A DNA stretch of 64,000 bases, from positions 434,001-498,000 of the forward strand of contig CDLV01000010.1 of the NCBI GenBank assembly GCA_001244265.2, written 5' to 3'. The notes under the pieces were generated by a model. That model searched no databases. It saw only the letters and a program-made list of their open reading frames with translations, and had not been told where the DNA came from. The position numbers were made by a program, and so were the translations under genes. Origin of the DNA: Microbotryum violaceum (lineage: Eukaryota). Shown here one piece after another: positions 1 through 10,655 of the stretch. Within the stretch, counting starts at the first letter, position 1, and every line of letters begins with the position of its first letter.

Positions 1-212
1 GGAGGGAGCAACCGTGGGTGGGGGGGACTTGAACTCGGATGTATCGGGTTGGTCTGTTCTGCTAGTTACAGCTCATCGAGCGGCGGTTGGGGTTATCGTC
101 GTGCATACTGGGCAGCATCTCCTTTAGTTCCGTAGGGGGTTTTCTCGTCTTGCAAATTAGCGATGAGTTCCATACCAAAAATAAATAAATAAAACATAAA
201 AAATAAATAAAA
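1..212 (+). mobile_element. 3' end of a diverged LINE subfamily (copy B) with A-rich tail; runs off the left edge
   Basis: Shares ordered motifs with the main element's 3' UTR (GGGAGCARCCG, ACTTGAA, GTATCGGRTTGGT, GGCGGTT, TTATCRTCGT, TTCCGTAGG). Ends CCATACC (170-176), followed by an A-rich tail at 177-212. Confidence 0.7.
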
Positions 213-780
213 TCCAGTTCTGCTTTCGTTGCTCATAGACCGGCTTGCGATTTGGGATTGACTCGACGGTGGCTCGCGCTCTTTGGCTTCGGGATTCTGA
301 GTCAAGGGAGGGATCAGCAGACACAGGCAGAAAGAGACAGTCGGCTTTGAGGGGCCAGGGACTGCTGAGGTGGAGGTTTTGGGGGGCCTCCACTGCGTCT
401 TGCTGTGAACGAGCATAGACTTGGGGCTTTGTGGGTCAGGGTAGTTGCTCAGTCGCTCTTCAGTCTTTGTCTCGACCGAGTTGGGAAGTGGGTGCGGGGT
501 GGGCCTCTTGTCGTTAGTAAATCGTTTGATTACTCTTTCTCTTTCTCTCTCTCTCTCCTCTCTCTCATTCGTCTCCAGGGGGGGAGCAGCCGCTTGGCTG
601 GGGCACTTGAATCCCAAGTATCGGATTGGTGGACACCGGCCCGTTTCTCGCATCTTGCGGGCGGTTTGTTTATCATCGTCGACTTCCATCGAGTTTTTCC
701 GTAGGCCAACTAGGGGGATCATGAACTGGGGGCAATATGATGGACAAGTTCTACCCCGCCCCCCCAAACAAAGGAAAAAA
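211..780 (+). mobile_element. 5'-truncated copy (A) of the main LINE, 3' UTR only
   Basis: Close reverse-complement match to 3348-3885. Ends GTTCTAC (748-754), then a decayed C/A-rich tail. Starts directly after copy B's tail. Confidence 0.88.
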
Positions 781-899
781 GGTTTCTGACAAACAAAAAG
801 GCCAACATGAACGAGCTTTAGTGTCGAGCCTGTCAGTGGGTGCACACGGCCGTCTGAGACCGAGGTAGTTGCTATACATTTGAGCTTGAGCGATTTGAG

Positions 900-2490
900 C
901 TTTGAGCCCTGCGCACTGGCCTTTGCGCATTGGGCGATCGGGCAATGGCCGGCCAGAGAGGATCGTTCCTCTACCGCCTCGGAAGATTCAGCGTCCATCT
1001 CATCGCCTCACACCTCGGGACCTGGCATCTCAGCGACTCGCAACCCACTACCTCATTATTCAGGTCGGGGTGAAATATACCGAAAATGCGGATTGGGAGG
1101 TGAAGTCTCGACCATCGCTCGCATACGCTCCATTCCGATGCTTGAAACCCCCATGCAGCCTAATGATAGTTCACCAACATCTATTGCTTCACAAATATTT
1201 TTTACTACAGTCAATTCCTTCTGTCTTCCAAGACCGTCGTCAGGGAAATCGGGAAAGCTGCCATGCTCGCCATTCGCGGTCAAGCTACGAATACCACTTA
1301 GAGACCCTCAAAGATCTCTCTCGGCCGCGCCGCCGCACGCCACCAGACCACGGTGGTTTCGGTTTGAGTGTTTTCCCTCGTCCCCCCCCCCTCCCCCGAT
1401 TGATCACGCCAAGCAAGTCTTTCAACTCTTCGACATTCGTCCAGTCGGCAAACCAACGCAACCACTTCACCATACGCAAACTGTCCTCCAACCAGCATTG
1501 TCGCTCTTGAATCTGGATCTGGGGGGCCTACTTTGCCACCCTCTACCTAATATAGGACCATACGGCGAAGAGGACGAGTGAACTGTTTTCTCAACGCTGG
1601 GTCCGCTACTTCGAAGCCTGGGCGTCGGTGGCAACACTGAACCCCCACCCCAAACTTTCCAAGGTCCAGAACCTCGAGGAACAGGCAAACCACGTGCTCT
1701 TCTTCCAGCGGGCCACGAAATTCACTCTCCGTGAACCCGACGTTCTTCCGAGGCCCTGACGGCGAGGTACAGCGATGACTCCGTCCTCGTTTGTGAACGC
1801 GTCCAAACGCCACCACGCCTGCCTGTACCCCTTGATTGTTCCTTAAGGACATCTCAAAAGAACTTCGATTCCCCGATCAATGCTGGAAGTCGTGGTGGAA
1901 GGCCTTGCGGAAGATTCGTAGAGTTCACTCGGATGTCAAAGATACCGCCAACTTCCACTCCCTGGAATCCCTCAAGCCAGGTCAACAACTCGTGTCCCCC
2001 AGCTACGCCCACGTCAATAATTCGGTCCACATACTGTGCGATGTGCTTAACCAACGCACCCGAGTTTCTGGCATACTTTCAGTCGGCTGCCCGCTCGCTT
2101 GGCGGTTTTGGATCGCTCTTCCTCCGGCCCCTCCCCCCGCCTTGCCCGTCTTCGTATGCCCGGTCGGCTCTCACTCGGAGCATCGACTGGTTGTTTCCAC
2201 TCGATCTGGAAGCTCTCTCGCCAGCGCCGATTCTCGTCGGAACCTTTGGAACCGATGACCGAAATGACTTTCGAGGATCTTCGAGCGTCTATCCTGATGT
2301 TCAAGGGTCGCCTCGTATCATTGTGACACCACCCGAGGGAATTTTTGTGTGCATGGTCGATTCTGTTACAACAAGGCCAACAAGTCCTACACTACTGGCG
2401 TGGCCGGTGTGCTTAAATGCACTCCTCCGGACTTTCCGAAGATATCTAGGCCTTCATACAATTATGCTGTTACAGGAACCTCTTAGGTAA
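900..2490 (+). mobile_element. Decayed 3' part of ORF2 from a second L1-like family
   Basis: Fragments in shifting frames but correct order: HYLIIQVGV (YLG-like RT motif), TNIYCFTNIFYYSQF, TPPDHGGFGL (GGLG-type motif), WKSWWKALRK, degenerate zinc finger CAMCLTNAPEFLAYF..VGCPLAWRFW. Boundaries approximate. Confidence 0.6.
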
Positions 2491-2808
2491 AGAAATCCAT
2501 GGCGGTTTCATATGGTCCGCTTCGAGTGTAGCGAAAAAGAAATCGCGGATTTATGGAGTATTGAGGTCTGAGTGAGAGTTTGGAGTATTTGTGTATTTGC
2601 TGGCAATTGGGTGATTACATTGGTGTTTGTTGAAGGGGAGGGTACCGCGGCTTGCTCGCGCGAGCGCGGTCGAACAGGAGGTGTCTGAAAGGCACAGATC
2701 GCTTCCGAGCCTGACTGATTCCGAGTCCAAACAGAAAGGATCAAACGGTGCAATCCGCAGGCGAAGAAAGACTACTAAAAGTACTTAGGTCAAGAGACGC
2801 CCGTGGCG

Positions 2809-3054
2809 CCGAGTGCGTCACAGAGCACGCCCCTTGCCGCGATCCAGACGTTCCGCGAGTCAACGCAACCGAAAAAGTAGTGGTCGGTGTCGTCCACCGG
2901 CGCTTCGCAGACGAGGTACGCGGGAGAAGTGTCGTGATTTTGTTGGTGTTGCAGCTTGTGCGTTGGGGTGAAGCGGAGAATCAACTTGAACCAAACTTCC
3001 CTCTCCCTCGCTGTCAGTGCCTTCGAGTTGACTGCCTTCCAGAAGCTCCTGAGG
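2809..3054 (-). mobile_element. Internal fragment of the main LINE ORF2 (C-terminal zinc-finger region)
   Basis: Near-identical to 4259-4503; encodes VCEAPVDDTDHYFFGC. Confidence 0.9.
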
Positions 3055-3055
3055 A

Positions 3056-3316
3056 TTTTTTATTTTTTTTGTAGAAAACGTTCATCGTATTGCCCCCAGT
3101 TCCTGTTCCCCCTGTTTTGGCCTACGGAAAAACTAGATGGAAGACTACGATGATAACACAAACCGCCCGCAAAAGTGCGAGAAACGAGCCAAGTCCACCA
3201 ATCCGAGATTCGGATTCAAATGCCCTAGCCAAGCGGTTGCTCCCCCCAGGAGACTAATGAGAGAGGGAACGAGAGATGAAGAGAAGAAAAGAAAGAAAAG
3301 AAATGTACTAACGACA
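3056..3316 (-). mobile_element. 5'-truncated LINE copy (C): last ~250 nt of 3' UTR plus poly(A)
   Basis: Diverged repeat of 3348-3596; T-tract 3056-3070 on + is the A-tail on -. Confidence 0.88.
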
Positions 3317-3994
3317 GAAGTAACTTTTTCTAAGGGTTTTTTTTTTTGTAGAACTTGTTCATCATATTGCCCCCAATTCCCGTTCCCCTGATTGGCCTAC
3401 GGAAAAGCTAGATGGAAGTCGACGATGATAACACAAACCGCCCGCAAGATGCGAGAAACGGGCCGGTGTCCACCAATCCGATACTTGGGATTCAAGTGCC
3501 CCAGCCAAGCGGTTGCTCCCCCCAGGAGACGAATGTGAGAGAGAAGGAGAGAGAGAGAGAAAGAGAAAAGAGTAACAAAACGATTTACTAACGACAAGAG
3601 GCCCACCCCGCACCCACTTCCCAACTCGGTCGAGACAAAGACAGGAGATCGACTGCGCAACTACCCTGACCCGCGAAGTCCTAAGTCTATGCTCGGTCAC
3701 AACAAGACGCGGTGGAGGCCCCTCAAAACCTCCACCTCAGCAGTCCCTGGCCCCTCAAAGCCGACTTTCTGCCTGTGTCTGCTGATCCCTCCCTTGACTC
3801 AGAACCCGAAGCCAAAGAGCGCGAGTCACCGTCGAGTCAATCTCAAATCACGAGCCGGTCCATGAGCAACAAAGGCAGACCTGTAATAGATGAAAGATGA
3901 AAGCAAGATATTTAGTATACAGTGTTTTGTTGGAAGATGAAGCGTGATGGTGTGTGTGTGTGGGGTGTGGTGGGGGGGAAATCGAACCCAGCCT

Positions 3995-6900
3995 CTACTG
4001 CCCTCGCCCGCCCCCTGCTCCTCCCGCCCTCAACTTCATCCTCTCCTCCAGTACCACCCTCCTCCTCTCCACGTTTTCCATCCTCGTCCCGTGCTTCTGT
4101 ATCCTCCATCTCCCACTGCTGATCATCTCCAAAACCATCCCCGGAAGATCTCGATTGTCCTCCCCGCCCCTTCCTGTTCGCTGAGCTTGGCCTTGAGCTT
4201 GGGGAGGCCAAAGAGCCGTTGCAGTGTCGTGTACCGGGCGTCCTCAATCGTGTCGCACCCGAGTGCGTCGCAGAGCACGCCCCTTGCCGCGATCCAGACA
4301 TTCCGCGAGTCAACGCAGCCGAAAAAGTAGTGGTCGGTGTCGTCCACCGGCGCTTCGCAGACGAGGCACGCGGAGAAGTGTCGTGATTCTGTTGGTGTTG
4401 CAGCTTGCGCGTCGGGGTGAAGCGGAGAATCAGCTTGAACCAAACTTCCCTCTCCCTCGCCGTCAGTGCCTTCGAGTTGACCGCCTTCCAAAAGCTCCTG
4501 AGGTCGTCCGGCTGCGGTGGTCCCTTGAGCCCGAGCGTGTTGGTAAAGGCCTTCGCGTTCAGGACCCGGCGGATGCGACGGATGGTGTACGGTCGAGCCA
4601 TGTTCAGCAGCTTGTACTGGCTCGCCTGCTGTGGAAGCACCGGGTCCGGAAGGCGCTGCTCCATTGCGAAGCGGGCCACGGGCTTGGGGAGAATCGCCTC
4701 GAGCGGTGCGCTGGTGCCGATCCGGGGAGGCACGTTGAGCCGTCCTGCCGCCACCGCCACCGCCAAGGGAGTGTTCTTGTGTCGATCGACAGTGAACCGG
4801 TACCAGGCCGCGATTGCCAGTCGCTGCGGGAGCCCGCGTCGATCGTACTCGCTGTTGTCGCCGAGCACATCCGCCGGCGGCGTCCAAAGGTGAAACCCCC
4901 CACCCGCATACAACTCGCGCCGGTAGAGATCCGCCACCTTCGGGTAGCCCTGGAGACGAAGGTAGTCAGGTATATGAACCGCGTCGATGGTCTGTCTCCC
5001 TCTGATGGGGGTGTGGAGGCTGCCGAGCAAGGTGGGAAGCGCGAGCAGGTTCGCGGTGGTCAAGGTCCTCGGGTTGACCTGCGCGTCTTGCTGTTTTGGA
5101 ACCCCAATGCCGCTCGCCATCGGGGATGGAGGTCGCTGGGGATGGGAGTGGATGGATGTGGCCAGAGATCGGTGGCCAGGTCGAGGTCGGACTGAGCTCG
5201 CTGGAGTGCCGCGCGCGCAAGTCCTTGCCAGATCGCGCCCGAACCGCCGAGAAGAACGTCCCAGATCCGTGCCGCAACCGCGTCCACGACGTCCCGCATC
5301 CTGATCACCCCGAGTCCCCCCTTGAGCTTGGCTGTGAACACGATATCTCTGCCGTAGCTGGTCCTGCCCTTGCCCCCACGGACGAAATCGACGAGCATGT
5401 CATCGAGCTTCTTGACGACTTCGGGCGGCGGGATGTCGGCTGCAAGGAAGTGCAGGATCTTGGGGATGGCGTACCGATTGACGTAAAAGGCACGGGTGTG
5501 GTGTGTGAGCCAGCGATGCTGAACCCCTTCCAGCGTCGCCTCGAGGCGTTCGATGAGATTCGCGTAGGCGAGTTCGGTGTCGCCGCTCGGGTCGAAGTGG
5601 AGGCCGATCCACTCGAGCGACTCGCCTGCGGCCTTGACGACGAGCGGGCGTTGCCCCGGGTCCCAGCGGCGTCCGATCGGTAGGACGACCGTCTTGTCCG
5701 TGTTGAGCCGGCCATTCGTTGCATGCCTCCAGTCGAGCGCCAGGTCATCGAGCAAGTTGAGTGACCCCAAGCCCGCGACGGCGACGACAACGTCATCGGC
5801 AAAAGCAAGCGATGTAATGGCGCGGCTCTGTGGGTACGGATGAAGTGCAGGTATGGAGAGATTCAGCGCGATGTTTCGACGGTGTAGAGCATCCAGAAAC
5901 GGCTGAAACACGATGTCCCAGACCGACGACGACGCCGGGTCCCCTTGGCCGAGCCCACACGTCAGTCGTACCGGCGCCGTCAAGAACCCATTGATGATGT
6001 AGCGGGCCGAGGTCGAGTCACCCGAGTAGAGCATCCTCAGCACGCGAAGAAAGGTGGCAGGAGCGCCCAGAGCGTCAAAGATGGCAAAGATCCAGTCATG
6101 CTCGACGAGGTCGTAGGCGGACGATTGGTCAAGAGATAAGGGTGCGGCCGCGGGGAACTCGGTCCTGCGCGCGCCAACTTCCTCGATCAGGAGACGAAGG
6201 TGTAGTGCAGCGTCAGCCAATCGGCGGTCCTTGACGAATCCGTGCTGCTGCGGCGGGAGGAGATCCGGTAGAATTTGGTTCAAACGGGCGACATAGACCT
6301 TGGTAAAGATCTTGTAATCGCACTCGCGCAGGGTGATCGGCCGGTACGACGAAAGTTCGGCGCGATCAGCATTCTTCTTGTGTCGCTTGAAGATGAGGCG
6401 CACGAGTCCTTGGCCCTGCTTGGGAGAGAGTGAGCCTCGCTCTATCATCGCGTTGTAGGCCTTGGTCAGCACCTTGGCCCACGCCTTGGGTGCGGTCTGG
6501 TAGAGTTCGTAGGGCACGCCCGACGGTCCCGGCGATCGCGGCCACGACCTCGTCCTCGGTGATTGGTCGCTGGAGTAAGTCGATCTGCGATTCCGAGAGT
6601 CGGCGCAGAAAGAGAGGATCCGAGCGCGGGTCGTCGCAAGTCCGCGCCGCCCTGATCGGCGCGAGGAATTCGTCCCGAAGTCGGTCGACGCGGTCCGGGT
6701 CACGAGGCTCGATGTGGTAGAGGCGCTGGAAATGCGCCTGCGTGTGGTCAAGAGCGACATCAATGTCATGCGTTAGCTCTCCGTTGCTCAAGCGCAGTGC
6801 TGTGATCTTGGAGTCCGAGTTCCGCGCCGCGAGCTTGGCGTGGACCGGCCGCGACAGTCGTTCCTCGGAGGCGATCTCGGGTACGTGGGCTCGGATCCGG

Positions 6901-7987
6901 AGTAGGCGCGCGCGCTCCTCGACCGCCCGCTTGAGTTCCTCGGACGTCCTTGTCCATTCTGCCGTTTCCGCCTCCCCCCATTCCGGTATCGCCTCCAGAT
7001 CCTGCACCCTCCCCACCAAATACTCCATCCGTTCCGTCCGCTCCCGATGCAACCTCCTCGCCATCTCCCCACCCCTATCCCTGCACGCCTTCAGAATGAC
7101 CTCGAGCTCCCCACCGGTTCCTCCCCGCTTGCCCCTTCCAACCATCCTTCCATCATCCGCTGGAATTCCACCGTCTTAAAGGTTGTGGTGTTGATTCGAT
7201 GTAGTTGGTTTGATGTGGTAGGTAGGCTGAGCTGTGGAGGGTCGCATCAGGATCGTCTGAGAGAGCCAGCACAATCAAGACCGGTCGGTGATCGGAAAGC
7301 TCCTTGGGATAGTCGTAGATCGTCGAGGCCTGATCGAGTCTTTTTTGGTGTGTCCGTTGCAGGAGAAAGTAGTCAAGCCGGGAGAAGGAGTTGGGTCGCT
7401 TGCGATTGGGATTAGGTCGAGTGAAGGATGGGGTGATGGGGTGTTTGTAGCGGATGCAGTCCGTGTAGGCCGAGTCGAGCTTGCCGATCAGGATTGGCCA
7501 GTGGTGGCCGCGCCGACTTTGGTTCCGCCGATCGACTTCTGGGCGCGGGCAGTCGTTGAGATCACCGCCAAGGAGTCAAAGGTGGGATTTCTGTGTTTTG
7601 TGAAATAAGAGTTTGTCAAAGAATTTCGCTCGTTGCTTTGGGTCAACGGGCGCGTAAACGTTGTTGATTTCTAGAATTTTGATGTCGCCCCGCAGACGAA
7701 AGGACGTGACGAGGAGCCGGCCGTCGAGTGCCGAGTGGGTGCGCAAGAGCTCGGCGTCGATCAGGGGGGAGTCAGCCGGAATTAGAGTCAGACAATGTTG
7801 GTTGATGAAGAGCTTGCCCTCGTACTCGTCCTTGATGAGTTGCCAGAGGTGCGGTCTGATGAAGTGCTCTTGTATGAGAATGGCCGATGCTTTGGAAAAG
7901 GAATAGGTAGTTGTAAATGTCACGTCGTTTCTCCGGGACCCCCATGCCCCTCCTCACGTTCCAGGTGATGATGGTGTGCTTAATCAT
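3995..7987 (-). pseudogene. LINE ORF2 (APE endonuclease - reverse transcriptase - CCHC finger), ~1330 codons, disrupted as assembled
   Basis: EN motifs ITWNVR, LIQEH, NVYAP, GGDLN, SRLDY, SDHRPV. RT motifs [44 protein letters not shown] (5792-5803), GGLG. Zinc finger CLVC..DHYFFGC. Several frameshifts and an in-frame TGA at 7576-7578. Confidence 0.92.
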
Positions 7988-10257
7988 TAATGGGTAGTTG
8001 AGGTCGAAGCGCTCTTGGCGGTGGTGACGTCCTCAAAGAGGGGAGGGCGGGCAGGACATCGTCCTCGGGCTCGTGGTCGGACCATCTTTTCTCCTCGGCT
8101 ACCCCTTTGCTTTCCCTCGGTCCACTTTCGTCACGCCAACCGGCATCGCCGCCGCCGCTGAAATCGACCTCGTCACCCTCCGCCCCTCTGTTCCATCCTT
8201 GACAACGACGCGGCTCTTCCCTTTGATGATCACTCGCTTGGCGTCGGTCGGTTCGTCACTAGGGTCACTGAGGTCCGCCGCAGTCTGCGACCTCTTCATT
8301 ACCGGCTTTTTGAACTTCGAAGCGGTCCCCCTGATATTGATGGAACGTATCTCACCGTCCTCATCCCACGTGGCAAAGTTGTGACGCACCAAAGGGGTTT
8401 CAGCGTCGAGCCTCCTCTCGATGCTTTGGTCCCGCTCGAGTCGTGCCTGCTCAACCCAGTTAGCTCTGATCCTGTCCCACTCCTCCCCTCGCGAAGCGAC
8501 TTGGCAAGAGTTTCGGGTGACAAAGGTGGGGTTGGTTCGTGGGGTGTCGATTCGCGGGAAGCGGTGGCGGCGGTTGCTGTTGCGTCGCTGTCGTCGTCAT
8601 TGTCCAGCCTGTTCGTCTCCCCTAAGTCCGTCGCTTCCGCGTTCTCCGCTTTCGTCGCTCCCCTGCCTCGTCCACATCGTCCACCTCCGTCGCCACCTCC
8701 TCTTCCTCCATCTCCGTCGCCACCTCCCTTTCCTCCATCTCCGTCGCCACCTTGCCTTCTGTTTCGCCCCTTCCATCCGCCATCACCTCATCCTCATCAA
8801 TCACCTCTCCATCGGATCCTCCGCAGTCCTCTAAAACCGACTCGTCCTCGCTCTTAAGTTTGATGACCTCCGTTTTCACGGTCGCCTCTGATTCCATCTC
8901 CGAGTCCTCCGAGTCCTCGTCATCCGCCTTATCACCAGCGTCCTCCTCCCCGATTCCTCTGGCCCCTGTCCGCTCTGGGCAGTTACCGCTTCCTCCTGTC
9001 CCTCCTCAACCTCGAGCCCGGCGAAGCGATTCTGTGATGCGATCCTGTTAAAAACCGGCACAGGAATGGGGCCTCGGCCTCCGCAATGTTGGTGTCGTTG
9101 GTGATGGTGTTCTTGTTGGCGTTGGTGTTGCCGTTGCCGTTGCCGTTGTGAGCCTCCTTTCGTTTGCTCTCCTGATCCAGTCCGCAGGTTCCCACGTGAC
9201 CAACGAAGTGGCACCTACCGCAAGCCGCCTCCTTCTCATAGTCATGGCGAAGGGCGGTGACCGGGATGCCTCGAGTGGGAAGGCCGATTCTCGAAGGTAG
9301 GATCTCTTTCAAGGTCGTGTTAGGGCGTTTGAACAGGGAGTCGTCATCGAAGTGTAGGAAAGCTGAGTAGTCTCCGGCAACGTGGGCAAAGGCCGAGGCG
9401 TTGTCCACGCTGATAATGCGCAGAACCTGCACAAGTTGGCACGAATGTCCCTTGCCTGACAAGTCCTGCACTAGTAATTGGAACGATTTGATGATGGCAT
9501 CCATGGAAGGCACTCCTTGAACACCGACGTTGATTCGAAGCTCGACCATGTTATGGTGGAACCTGTGAGATTTCGCGAAGCGGGCCTTCGCCGATCGCCA
9601 AGTGAGAGCAAGGGGCGTCGTAAGCGCAGCGTCACGTGCCTCGCCGGTGACGAACCCAACCGTAACGCGATGGTGAGCCGCCCCATTACGCAGGATTGAT
9701 GAATGTTGTACGCCTAGGATCTGTGGTCGATAGGCTGCAAGGTGGTCCGGCAGAGGAACTCCAGGCTCAAAGCAGATAGGAGAGATCGGCGATAACAGCC
9801 TCGTGACGCAGGCCACGAGATCGGTCTTGTCGGCATGAGACGCTCGCGAGGCGCTCTGGTGAGACAGAGTCACTTCAAGGGCGTAATCAAAGATGTTCTC
9901 GACAGACCGGTTCGCGTTCAAGGCCGAGAATTTCAGCGATGTGGCGGTGGCGACGGGGTAGAGTTCGGCGAAGTAGATGGCCTGGACCCAACGATCCATG
10001 CGGTTTCCGGGTACAGCACCCATGGCTTGTAGGAGGCTGCCCAAAGCCTTGGCACGCTGTTGTTGTTGTTGCTGTTGTTCAGGTGACTGAGTCGCCTGAC
10101 TCGCAGCGGCGGCATAGTTGGGTGCGGCGGTGGCGGGGCCCGTGACTTGCGTCTTCTTCGAGCTTATCGGGATCTGGTCGCGGGGTGACTGGACGCTGGT
10201 GGCGGACACCGGTGGTGGCGGTGCCGGCGGTGGGGACCCAGGGTCTCCTGTAGACAT
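7987..10257 (-). pseudogene. LINE ORF1 (nucleic-acid-binding, gag-like), ~750 codons after frameshift repair
   Basis: Lies upstream of ORF2. Pro/Gln-rich N-terminus, zinc knuckle [13 protein letters not shown], acidic region with VATEMEE repeats. ORF-track pieces 8983-10257, 8876-9214, 8622-8897, 8299-8523 and 8099-8392 join when one base is added at G4/C4 runs. Confidence 0.8.
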
Positions 10258-10313: not shown

Positions 10314-10438
10314 GAAGTGAAGTGAAGTGAAGTGAAGTGAAGTGAAGTGAAGTGAAGTGAAGTGAAGTGAAGTGAAGTGGGGTGAGGTGAGGTGAAGTGA
10401 AGTGAAGTGAAGTGAAGTGAAGTGAAGTGAAGTGAAGT
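10314..10438. repeat. (GAAGT)25 / (CTTCA)25 tandem pentamer array at the LINE 5' end
   Basis: 125 nt, 25 units, three variant units (GGGGT, GAGGT x2). Confidence 0.97.
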
Positions 10439-10539
10439 AGAGGGGGTTTTTTGTATGTTTTTTTTTTTTTTTGTATGGGTTGGGGCCCATAAACAATGAT
10501 GATATATATTCAAGCCCGGCCTCCTAACCATTGCTCGCT

Positions 10540-10655
10540 GCCCGGATGGTCTAGTGGTATGATTCGCCCTTAGGGAGTTAACAGTCTTGTGCCTTCTTGC
10601 GCTCTGGATGTATCTACTTTGGGCGAGGTCCCCGGTTCAATCCCGGGTTCGGGCC
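10540..10655 (+). tRNA. tRNA-Pro(AGG) with 44-nt intron (10576-10619)
   Basis: Acceptor GCCCGGA/TTCGGGC, D-arm TGGTCTAGTGGTATGAT, anticodon stem CGCCC/GGGCG with loop TT-AGG-G^T, T-arm CCCGG-TTCAATC-CCGGG, discriminator C, T-rich terminator ~10670-10677. Confidence 0.95.

Follow-up and report, generated by a model that had tools for sequence, protein, structure and literature searches.

A predicted two-part RNA fold before the poly(A) tail of L1-like LINEs in Microbotryum violaceum: a candidate template-recognition signal

Results

LINE stacks next to a tRNA gene

The window, by which we mean the whole stretch of 64,000 nt that was analysed, comes from Microbotryum violaceum (contig CDLV01000010.1, positions 434,001 to 498,000). 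It contains a full-length but frameshifted LINE, D, which spans approximately 10446 to 3337 on the minus strand. The 5' end of D (10314..10446, minus strand) has a head of 25 copies of a 5-bp repeat (10314-10438) and is followed by a frameshifted ORF1 region (7991..10257, minus strand), which was delimited by tblastn with P0007 and in which no Pfam family was found. ORF2 (4034..7990, minus strand) contains several frameshifts and encodes an APE endonuclease, a reverse transcriptase (RT) and a zf-RVT domain. The 3' UTR of about 680 nt comprises a region at 3524..4030 (minus strand), with a CU-rich tract just upstream of the structured element, and the element itself at 3348..3523 (minus strand); poly(A) follows at 3347-3337. 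The element of D is contiguous with an ORF2 of the APE-RT-zinc finger type and ends in poly(A), and the LINE has the features of the L1 clade (L1/Tx1): besides ORF1 and a poly(A) tail, it carries an ORF2 with APE and RT domains and a zinc domain at the C-terminus. Proteins named from Microbotryum saponariae and M. silenes-dioicae share 96-99% identity with the RT in the window, and the nearest solved structure is human L1 ORF2p (E 1.9e-25), before R2 (3.7e-18).

The 5' end of D faces the 5' end of an intron-containing tRNA-Pro(AGG) gene (10540..10655, plus strand; ARAGORN with introns). Past the poly(A) of D lies the 5'-truncated tail copy C, which belongs to a second abundant type and has its own poly(A) (3060..3316, minus strand; element 3246-3071), and then E, an ORF2 fragment of the zinc-finger region without a tail of its own (2781..3054, minus strand), which is 95% identical to D over 2809-3054. 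This D-C-E stack starts about 60-95 bp upstream of the tRNA gene and is oriented away from it, in a TRE5-like arrangement. An opposed stack occupies 1-754 on the plus strand. It consists of copy B, the 3' terminal element of a divergent tail type (1..176, plus strand), which is cut by the window start, its A-rich tail (177..214, plus strand), and copy A, a 5'-truncated 3' UTR of the D family (215..754, plus strand; structured element 580-754), the truncated 5' end of which is joined directly to the tail of B. From the opposed stack, a further Pol III gene is predicted beyond the left border of the window. Head-to-tail fusions of different LINE families, as in the stacks of the window, also occur in public gene models.

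Between the tRNA gene and the 5' end of D (10443-10480) there are two short units with ends like the B tail, each followed by an A-run, and they may be insertions of the B type with extreme truncation. Both ends of D (10443-10480 and 3334-3347) are flanked by an A-run with CCC behind it, which may represent a target-site duplication. The roughly 2 kb that separate the opposed stacks (755-2780) contain open frames of about 250 codons, and no Pfam family was found there in six frames. Ordinary host genes occupy 13541-63762, including those for sulfite reductase, a deaminase, SelO, DNA polymerase alpha, kinesin, 3-HAO, Vps39 and Erv1.

Tail copies, lineages and family assignment

A sequence-only reading of the window had proposed four copies of a conserved structured RNA at the LINE 3' end. 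All four are present at the places it had named; they represent, however, only three lineages, i.e. A/D, C, and B. A and D are 91% identical over 545 nt and 93% within the structured element, C and D are 84% identical over 264 nt and 87% within the element, and B and D are 60% identical over the element. The local alignment of B and D scores 109, compared to 47.7+-5.9 for shuffled sequences, and this score was reached by none of 300 shuffles. By this similarity, B is a true homologue of the D tail.

The families behind the tails could be assigned with different degrees of confidence. D is the P0007-type tail, as its contiguity with the coding region reveals. C is probably the tail of P0018, based on its abundance and on a weak, one-codon match to the gene model P0006. 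No coding partner of B is present within the window, and no ORF2 family for B was retrieved by tblastn of 219 proteins, by a 7-mer peptide search, or by a protein search with one B reading frame. By elimination, B is likely the tail of P0045/P0049, the ORF2 of which is about 49% identical; alternatively, B may itself be a SINE or belong to a fifth family. In an RT tree of 26 rows, which was built without named references from a selection of the 219 proteins together with the window RT, the window family, P0018 and P0045/P0049 fall into one well-supported clade, and P0060 lies outside. The P0060 family shares these stacks, its ORF2 is about 41% identical, and its tail, which was reconstructed from two gene-model frames that overlap with 0 conflicts, has no detectable similarity to the element. 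P0060 was rejected as the family of B, as its tail scores like shuffles against the four copies (100-202 of 300). The dissimilar tail also indicates that the fold is not a general requirement of this LINE group. The tail of the P0060 family (P0015, P0075) has a strong 6-bp hairpin of its own (probability 0.98); a likeness of one hairpin to helix P5 of the element (see below), seen by eye, was not significant and was rejected.

A scan of metagenomes for related loci retained 80 of 426 confirmed loci, all of them distant L1s, of which the best was 46% identical and ended inside the RT. Three loci came from prokaryote assemblies and none from viral contigs, and a DNA pattern search of viral contigs gave 16 matches. 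An nhmmer search over 83 loci yielded no homologue of the element (best E 4), and a covariance model run over the window and 99 loci recovered only the four training copies. Thus, no homologue outside Microbotryum was found in the 99 loci; with a single exception, these loci are distant or unrelated.

Contigs of four public sequencing runs (of 24 listed), including X3, X7 and X13, were compared over positions 1-800; run X15 is RNA by assumption only, and X3, X7 and X13 are not marked as RNA. The B and A tail types both occur in all four runs at a depth well above that of single-locus contigs, which suggests many copies, although the depth itself is not a copy number. Window B departs from the usual B type at eight majority sites in the four runs, copy A has private alleles at 589, 691 and 719, and C-type alleles at 680/682 make up approximately 37-43% of the depth in X3, X7 and X13. 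A contig of X7 is identical to 141-269, which includes the junction of the B tail and A. The tail of A itself (755-785) is degenerate, C/A-rich with a C-rich sequence instead of poly(A), and it competes with P1 in folding; an X7 contig matches 640-800 exactly, so that the C-rich tail is not an assembly error. In X13, a joint of positions 155 and 608 connects a B-type end and a short A-tail with an A-type copy truncated at another point, and the same stacking therefore arose independently elsewhere. Record 18 of X3 (window 45-112) is a diverged B-like piece on a 3.4-kb contig of low, single-locus-like depth; it has A at position 83, which would give a U-A pair in P1, and similar alleles occur in X7.

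Predicted fold of the terminal element

When majority-allele B, majority-allele A, C and D were folded separately, one common topology was predicted. In domain 1 (about 82 nt), helix P1 closes a three-way junction from which a long arm and the short side hairpin P5 extend; the arm is composed, in this order, of P2, a small internal loop, P3, an invariant UG bulge, and P4. Domain 2 (about 71 nt) consists of one long hairpin with interruptions, and its closing stem, P6, lies about 10 nt upstream of the poly(A). In B (plus strand) the predicted helices are P1 at 9-15/83-89, P2 at 17-23/57-63, P3 at 25-29/51-55, the UG bulge at 30-31, P4 at 32-38/44-50, and, with the majority alleles, P5 at 72-74/80-82; domain 2 has P6 at 96-102/160-166 and an apical stem at 117-123/134-140. 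C, the best-folding copy, has P1 at 3238-3232/3167-3161, P2 at 3230-3224/3193-3187, P4 at 3216-3210/3206-3200, and P6 at 3153-3146/3089-3082 (minus strand). For D (minus strand) the predictions are P1 at 3514-3509/3441-3436, P2 at 3506-3501/3466-3461, P3 at 3498-3495/3474-3471, P4 at 3492-3488/3479-3475, P5 at 3453-3450/3446-3443, and P6 at 3428-3422/3365-3359. Inspection revealed no conserved pseudoknot.

In energy, the sense strand has an advantage of 5-17 kcal/mol over the antisense strand for each domain in all four copies; by z-score, it is no better than the antisense strand in domain 1 of A. The whole element is no more stable than shuffled sequences in B, A and D (z of +0.17 for B and +0.74 for D), and only C reaches -2.5. 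The z-scores of domain 1 range from -1.1 to -3.0. A sliding search of the 3' UTR of D (3524-4030) found no unusually stable window of 82 nt (z of -1.0 to +2.2).

Addition of the upstream context separated majority alleles from private ones. The A type with majority alleles retains every helix with probabilities of 0.75-0.97, P1 and P2 are lost in window A, and in D the probability falls to about 0.4 for domain 1 and domain 2 no longer forms. P1 and P6 have probabilities of 0.73 and 0.93 in majority B versus 0.38 and 0.35 in window B. Robust folding of the majority alleles and loss of helices in individual dead copies are to be expected if the active lineage is under selection and its copies then decay neutrally. 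In C and D the CU-rich tract upstream of the element (3524-3600; 3247-3316) pairs with the 5' G-run with probabilities of 0.82-0.88, and this predicted pairing possibly insulates domain 1. A closing helix of the 5' G-run with the 3' end was rejected, as it forms only without context and the upstream CU tract takes over when context is present.

Compensatory changes and randomised controls

All stem strands that the sequence-only reading had quoted as evidence for covariation were found where it had placed them, and two of its examples represent true two-sided changes, i.e. the inner stem (G26-C54 versus C-G) and the apical stem of domain 1 (C34-G48 versus U-A). Two further two-sided changes, which it had not named, are located in the arm helix of B at 17-23/57-63. 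The other examples did not hold up. The side hairpin had been given as GCTC/GAGC versus CGCA/TGCG, but the usual B type has the same CGC/GCG hairpin as A, C and D, and thus there is no covariation: position 73 is G in all covering contigs of all four runs, position 71 is A in 73-100% of the depth, and position 78 is A in 51-100%. G589 of copy A, in P1, and G98 of B, in the closing stem of domain 2, are private bases, as all covering contigs of the four runs read A instead, and only one-sided changes are left in either stem. The examples at the side hairpin, 589 and 98 rest on private or minor alleles and therefore are not family-level covariation.

Among 31 pairs of P1-P6 compared in B (majority alleles), C and D, a count that omits the seven pairs of the domain-2 apical stem, for which the tabulated register was judged to be one base off, 19 are unchanged, eight have a one-sided change, four have a two-sided change, and none is broken. 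The register of P2, which is rich in G-U pairs (4 of 6 in B), was taken from the fold of each copy and is one base off the MAFFT alignment. A pair counter applied to the raw four-row alignment found 93% of cells paired and seven two-sided pairs, and 1 of 500 shuffles was as high, in a control that ignores relatedness and uses a structure derived from the same four rows.

The fold was also tested with a randomised-substitution control, in which the same letter-to-letter substitutions and indels were placed randomly in a reference copy, which was then refolded. Nine ordered comparisons were made for both domains with 400 replicates each; the comparisons are not independent, the domain borders were chosen after inspection, and the evidence base is three lineages. 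For domain 1, the minimum free energy fold of each copy recovers 26 of 26 or 29 of 29 pairs, with a slip of up to 2 nt, in all seven comparisons that involve B (versus A, C or D). Controls recover about 5+-6 pairs, and at most one of 400 matched the observed value (0-1/400). Between A and C, 23-24 of 400 controls matched. A strict position-wise count for domain 1, which was reached by 0-19 of 400 controls in the B comparisons, is weaker than the fold-based count. Conservation of the predicted domain 1 fold beyond chance is thus well supported. For domain 2, the B comparisons were matched by 0, 2, 13, 15, 46, 67 and 77 of 400 controls, those of A and C by 114 and 256, and the strict position-wise count by 8-292 of 400 (B comparisons), so that the case for a conserved fold of domain 2 as modelled is mixed.

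The sequence-only reading had also regarded TTCCGTAGG as an invariant motif within domain 2. It occurs in all four copies, but it is displaced by 8 nt and lies in different fold contexts: it is downstream of the domain-2 closing stem by 25 nt in B, where it forms the loop and 3' strand, and by 17 nt in A, C and D, where it forms the 5' strand and loop. Its presence in all four is improbable by chance, as a shared 9-mer arose in only 142 of 20,000 shuffles in a post hoc test. Either TTCCGTAGG is a sequence signal that has slid, or it is a short internal repeat and the structural register is homologous.

Known RNA classes

In a search of Rfam 15, no family matched at the gathering threshold (0 matches). 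At E<=10, positions 1-4200 gave four matches, none of them to a ribozyme and all far below gathering; those that touch the copies are HOTTIP_2 (9.1 of 80 bits) and snosnR64 (18.1 of 38 bits), both antisense. No Rfam 15 family (SRP, snRNA, 5S, tRNA-like) came near its gathering threshold, and a likeness to the SRP Alu domain, seen by eye, had no Rfam support. In agreement with the earlier statement that no known ribozyme core is present, the core patterns of hammerhead, twister, pistol and hatchet are absent from the sense strand, and no HDV loop-plus-junction pattern occurs in the right order and in common to the copies. An HDV-like pairing of the domain-1 arm with the domain-2 loop can be drawn in D and in a shorter form in C, is absent from B, and was rejected. 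Facing U-runs flanked by stems, as in an ENE, were found 0 times in the four copies and the 3' UTR of D. Upstream of their tails, A and D lack an AATAAA-like signal, and the matches to it in B and C are inside the A-rich tail.

Discussion

The analysis indicates that the last approximately 170 nt of L1-like LINE RNAs of Microbotryum may form a selected two-part fold before the poly(A), which would serve as the template-recognition signal for ORF2p. By analogy with other LINEs we hold this to be the probable explanation, with considerable room for doubt. For domain 1, compensatory changes connect diverged families, in three lineages only. The ORF2 protein would bind the tail fold, the bound fold would mark the RNA as "self", and it would bring the poly(A) to the nicked target for target-primed reverse transcription to begin at the tail. 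Drift of the sequence at constant shape would allow coexisting families to keep distinct signals. As copying would start at the 3' end, the shortest insertions would carry the element, and this would account for the piling up of tail copies in the stacks. Of the functions proposed by the sequence-only reading, template recognition by ORF2p is, on this analogy, the most plausible for a conserved sense-strand fold at a LINE 3' terminus. The contrast drawn with L1, which was said to need only poly(A), is incomplete, as TRE5-A needs a predicted 3' stem structure (PMC3159450) and a plant L1 lineage keeps a 3' hairpin (PMC3747384). With about 500 nt between the ORF2 stop and the element downstream of it, a role in the translation of ORF2 is unlikely.

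A selected fold could also serve the metabolism of the RNA and not ORF2p, e.g. by forming its 3' end, by protecting it against decay or silencing, or in export or packaging by ORF1p. The direct neighbourhood of element and poly(A) and the missing AATAAA-like signal upstream of the tail in A and D would fit, and stabilising 3' structures are known from plant and fungal transposons (ENE; PMC12501189). However, the element is not an ENE, as the facing U-runs are lacking, and stem mutants of TRE5-A kept their transcript levels (PMC3159450), so that we regard this explanation as unlikely, although it deserves to be taken seriously. Ribozymes are known in retroelements in general, and an undescribed catalytic or self-processing RNA might cut or define the 3' end, or let single copies be released or copied out of the read-through transcripts that head-to-tail stacks upstream of tRNA genes would yield. 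A multi-helix junction with invariant unpaired bases (the UG bulge) would suit such an activity, but no Rfam ribozyme model scores, no ribozyme core pattern is common to the copies, and the HDV-like pairing of D fails in B. In addition, the copies end in poly(A) and their 5' truncations are unrelated (215, 3316, and 608 in X13) and reveal no fixed cut, and self-processing is thus very improbable.

It is also conceivable that the fold has only a part of the proposed function or none, i.e. that domain 1 is inherited G/U-rich complementarity, domain 2 reflects composition, and the RT needs only poly(A), which appears to be so for Zorro3. The controls for domain 2 are often non-significant, the whole-element z-scores are near zero, four two-sided changes over three lineages are a small number, and the copies land at A-rich junctions. 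Of 30 new Zorro3 copies, 3 stopped short of the natural 3' end, and all carried poly(A) (PMC1965478). A RIP-like process gives a C-to-T bias (PMC3318451), but the control preserved the substitution spectrum, so that this bias was matched, and domain 1 still stood at 0-1/400. Moreover, none of the 31 pairs is broken and majority alleles fold better than private ones, and we consider this explanation rather improbable. The reading as an ORF2p recognition signal, if true, would bring a fungal L1-like lineage into the small set of L1-clade elements that have a structured 3' signal (TRE5-A and one plant lineage). It would bear on the question, raised in PMC3747384, whether stringent recognition was ancestral in the L1 clade, and the three diverged tail types at common landing sites would be suited for studying how RTs and RNA signals are matched. 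In the open literature we found no description of a structured LINE tail in Microbotryum; these families may already be contained in transposon libraries that supplement the genome papers on Microbotryum.

Comparison with known systems

Structured 3' elements of transposon RNAs are of several kinds. The triple-helix forming ENEs are also 3'-UTR structures near poly(A), but they are tied to LTR elements, and their U-rich internal loop is absent from the Microbotryum element (PMC12501189). Zorro3 of Candida albicans is, like the LINE described here, a fungal L1-clade element with A-rich junctions at both ends; in contrast, the accessible text on Zorro3 reports no 3' structure, and its targets are poly(A) tracts near promoters (PMC1965478, PMC3956500).

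Precedents for structured tails exist in R2 and in the L2 clade (PMC5135761, PMC11601368). The R2 3' UTR also has two structured parts with a short hinge directly before the priming site, and a common architecture despite divergent sequence, but R2 differs in its single ORF, restriction-like endonuclease, insertion into rDNA, and pseudoknot (PMC11601368). The stringent LINEs UnaL2 of eel, ZfL2 of zebrafish and SART1 of silkworm (PMC5135761), as well as the maize/sorghum L1 lineage LINE1-1_ZM, which retains a 3' hairpin with compensatory changes (PMC3747384), share with the Microbotryum LINE a terminal bulged stem and compensatory changes. However, all four have single hairpins of about 40-50 nt (PMC5135761, PMC3747384). 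These hairpins are often shared with SINEs, whereas no SINE or reporter sharing the Microbotryum tail was found.

The closest parallel is offered by TRE5-A and TRE5-C of Dictyostelium, a likeness of architecture. Like the Microbotryum LINE, they have APE, RT, a zinc finger and an oligo(A) tail (PMC3159450), and both are located upstream of tRNA genes in opposite orientation (PMC5911963). TRE5-A is an L1-like, poly(A)-tailed element residing upstream of tRNA genes that requires a predicted 3' stem structure: point mutations in the C-module stem lowered retrotransposition by 98-100%, and the RNA level was not lowered (PMC3159450). An L1-like element that needs a 3' structure would therefore not be unprecedented. 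The TRE5 structure is about 50 nt long and essential by mutation, in contrast to the predicted fold of about 170 nt in Microbotryum with its junction and long hairpin; in both systems, two families have a similar predicted 3'-terminal fold despite sequence change (PMC3159450). Taken together, the structured tail is real and moderately well supported, and the element would be a signal of a known kind that exceeds the usual hairpin in size, and not a new RNA class.
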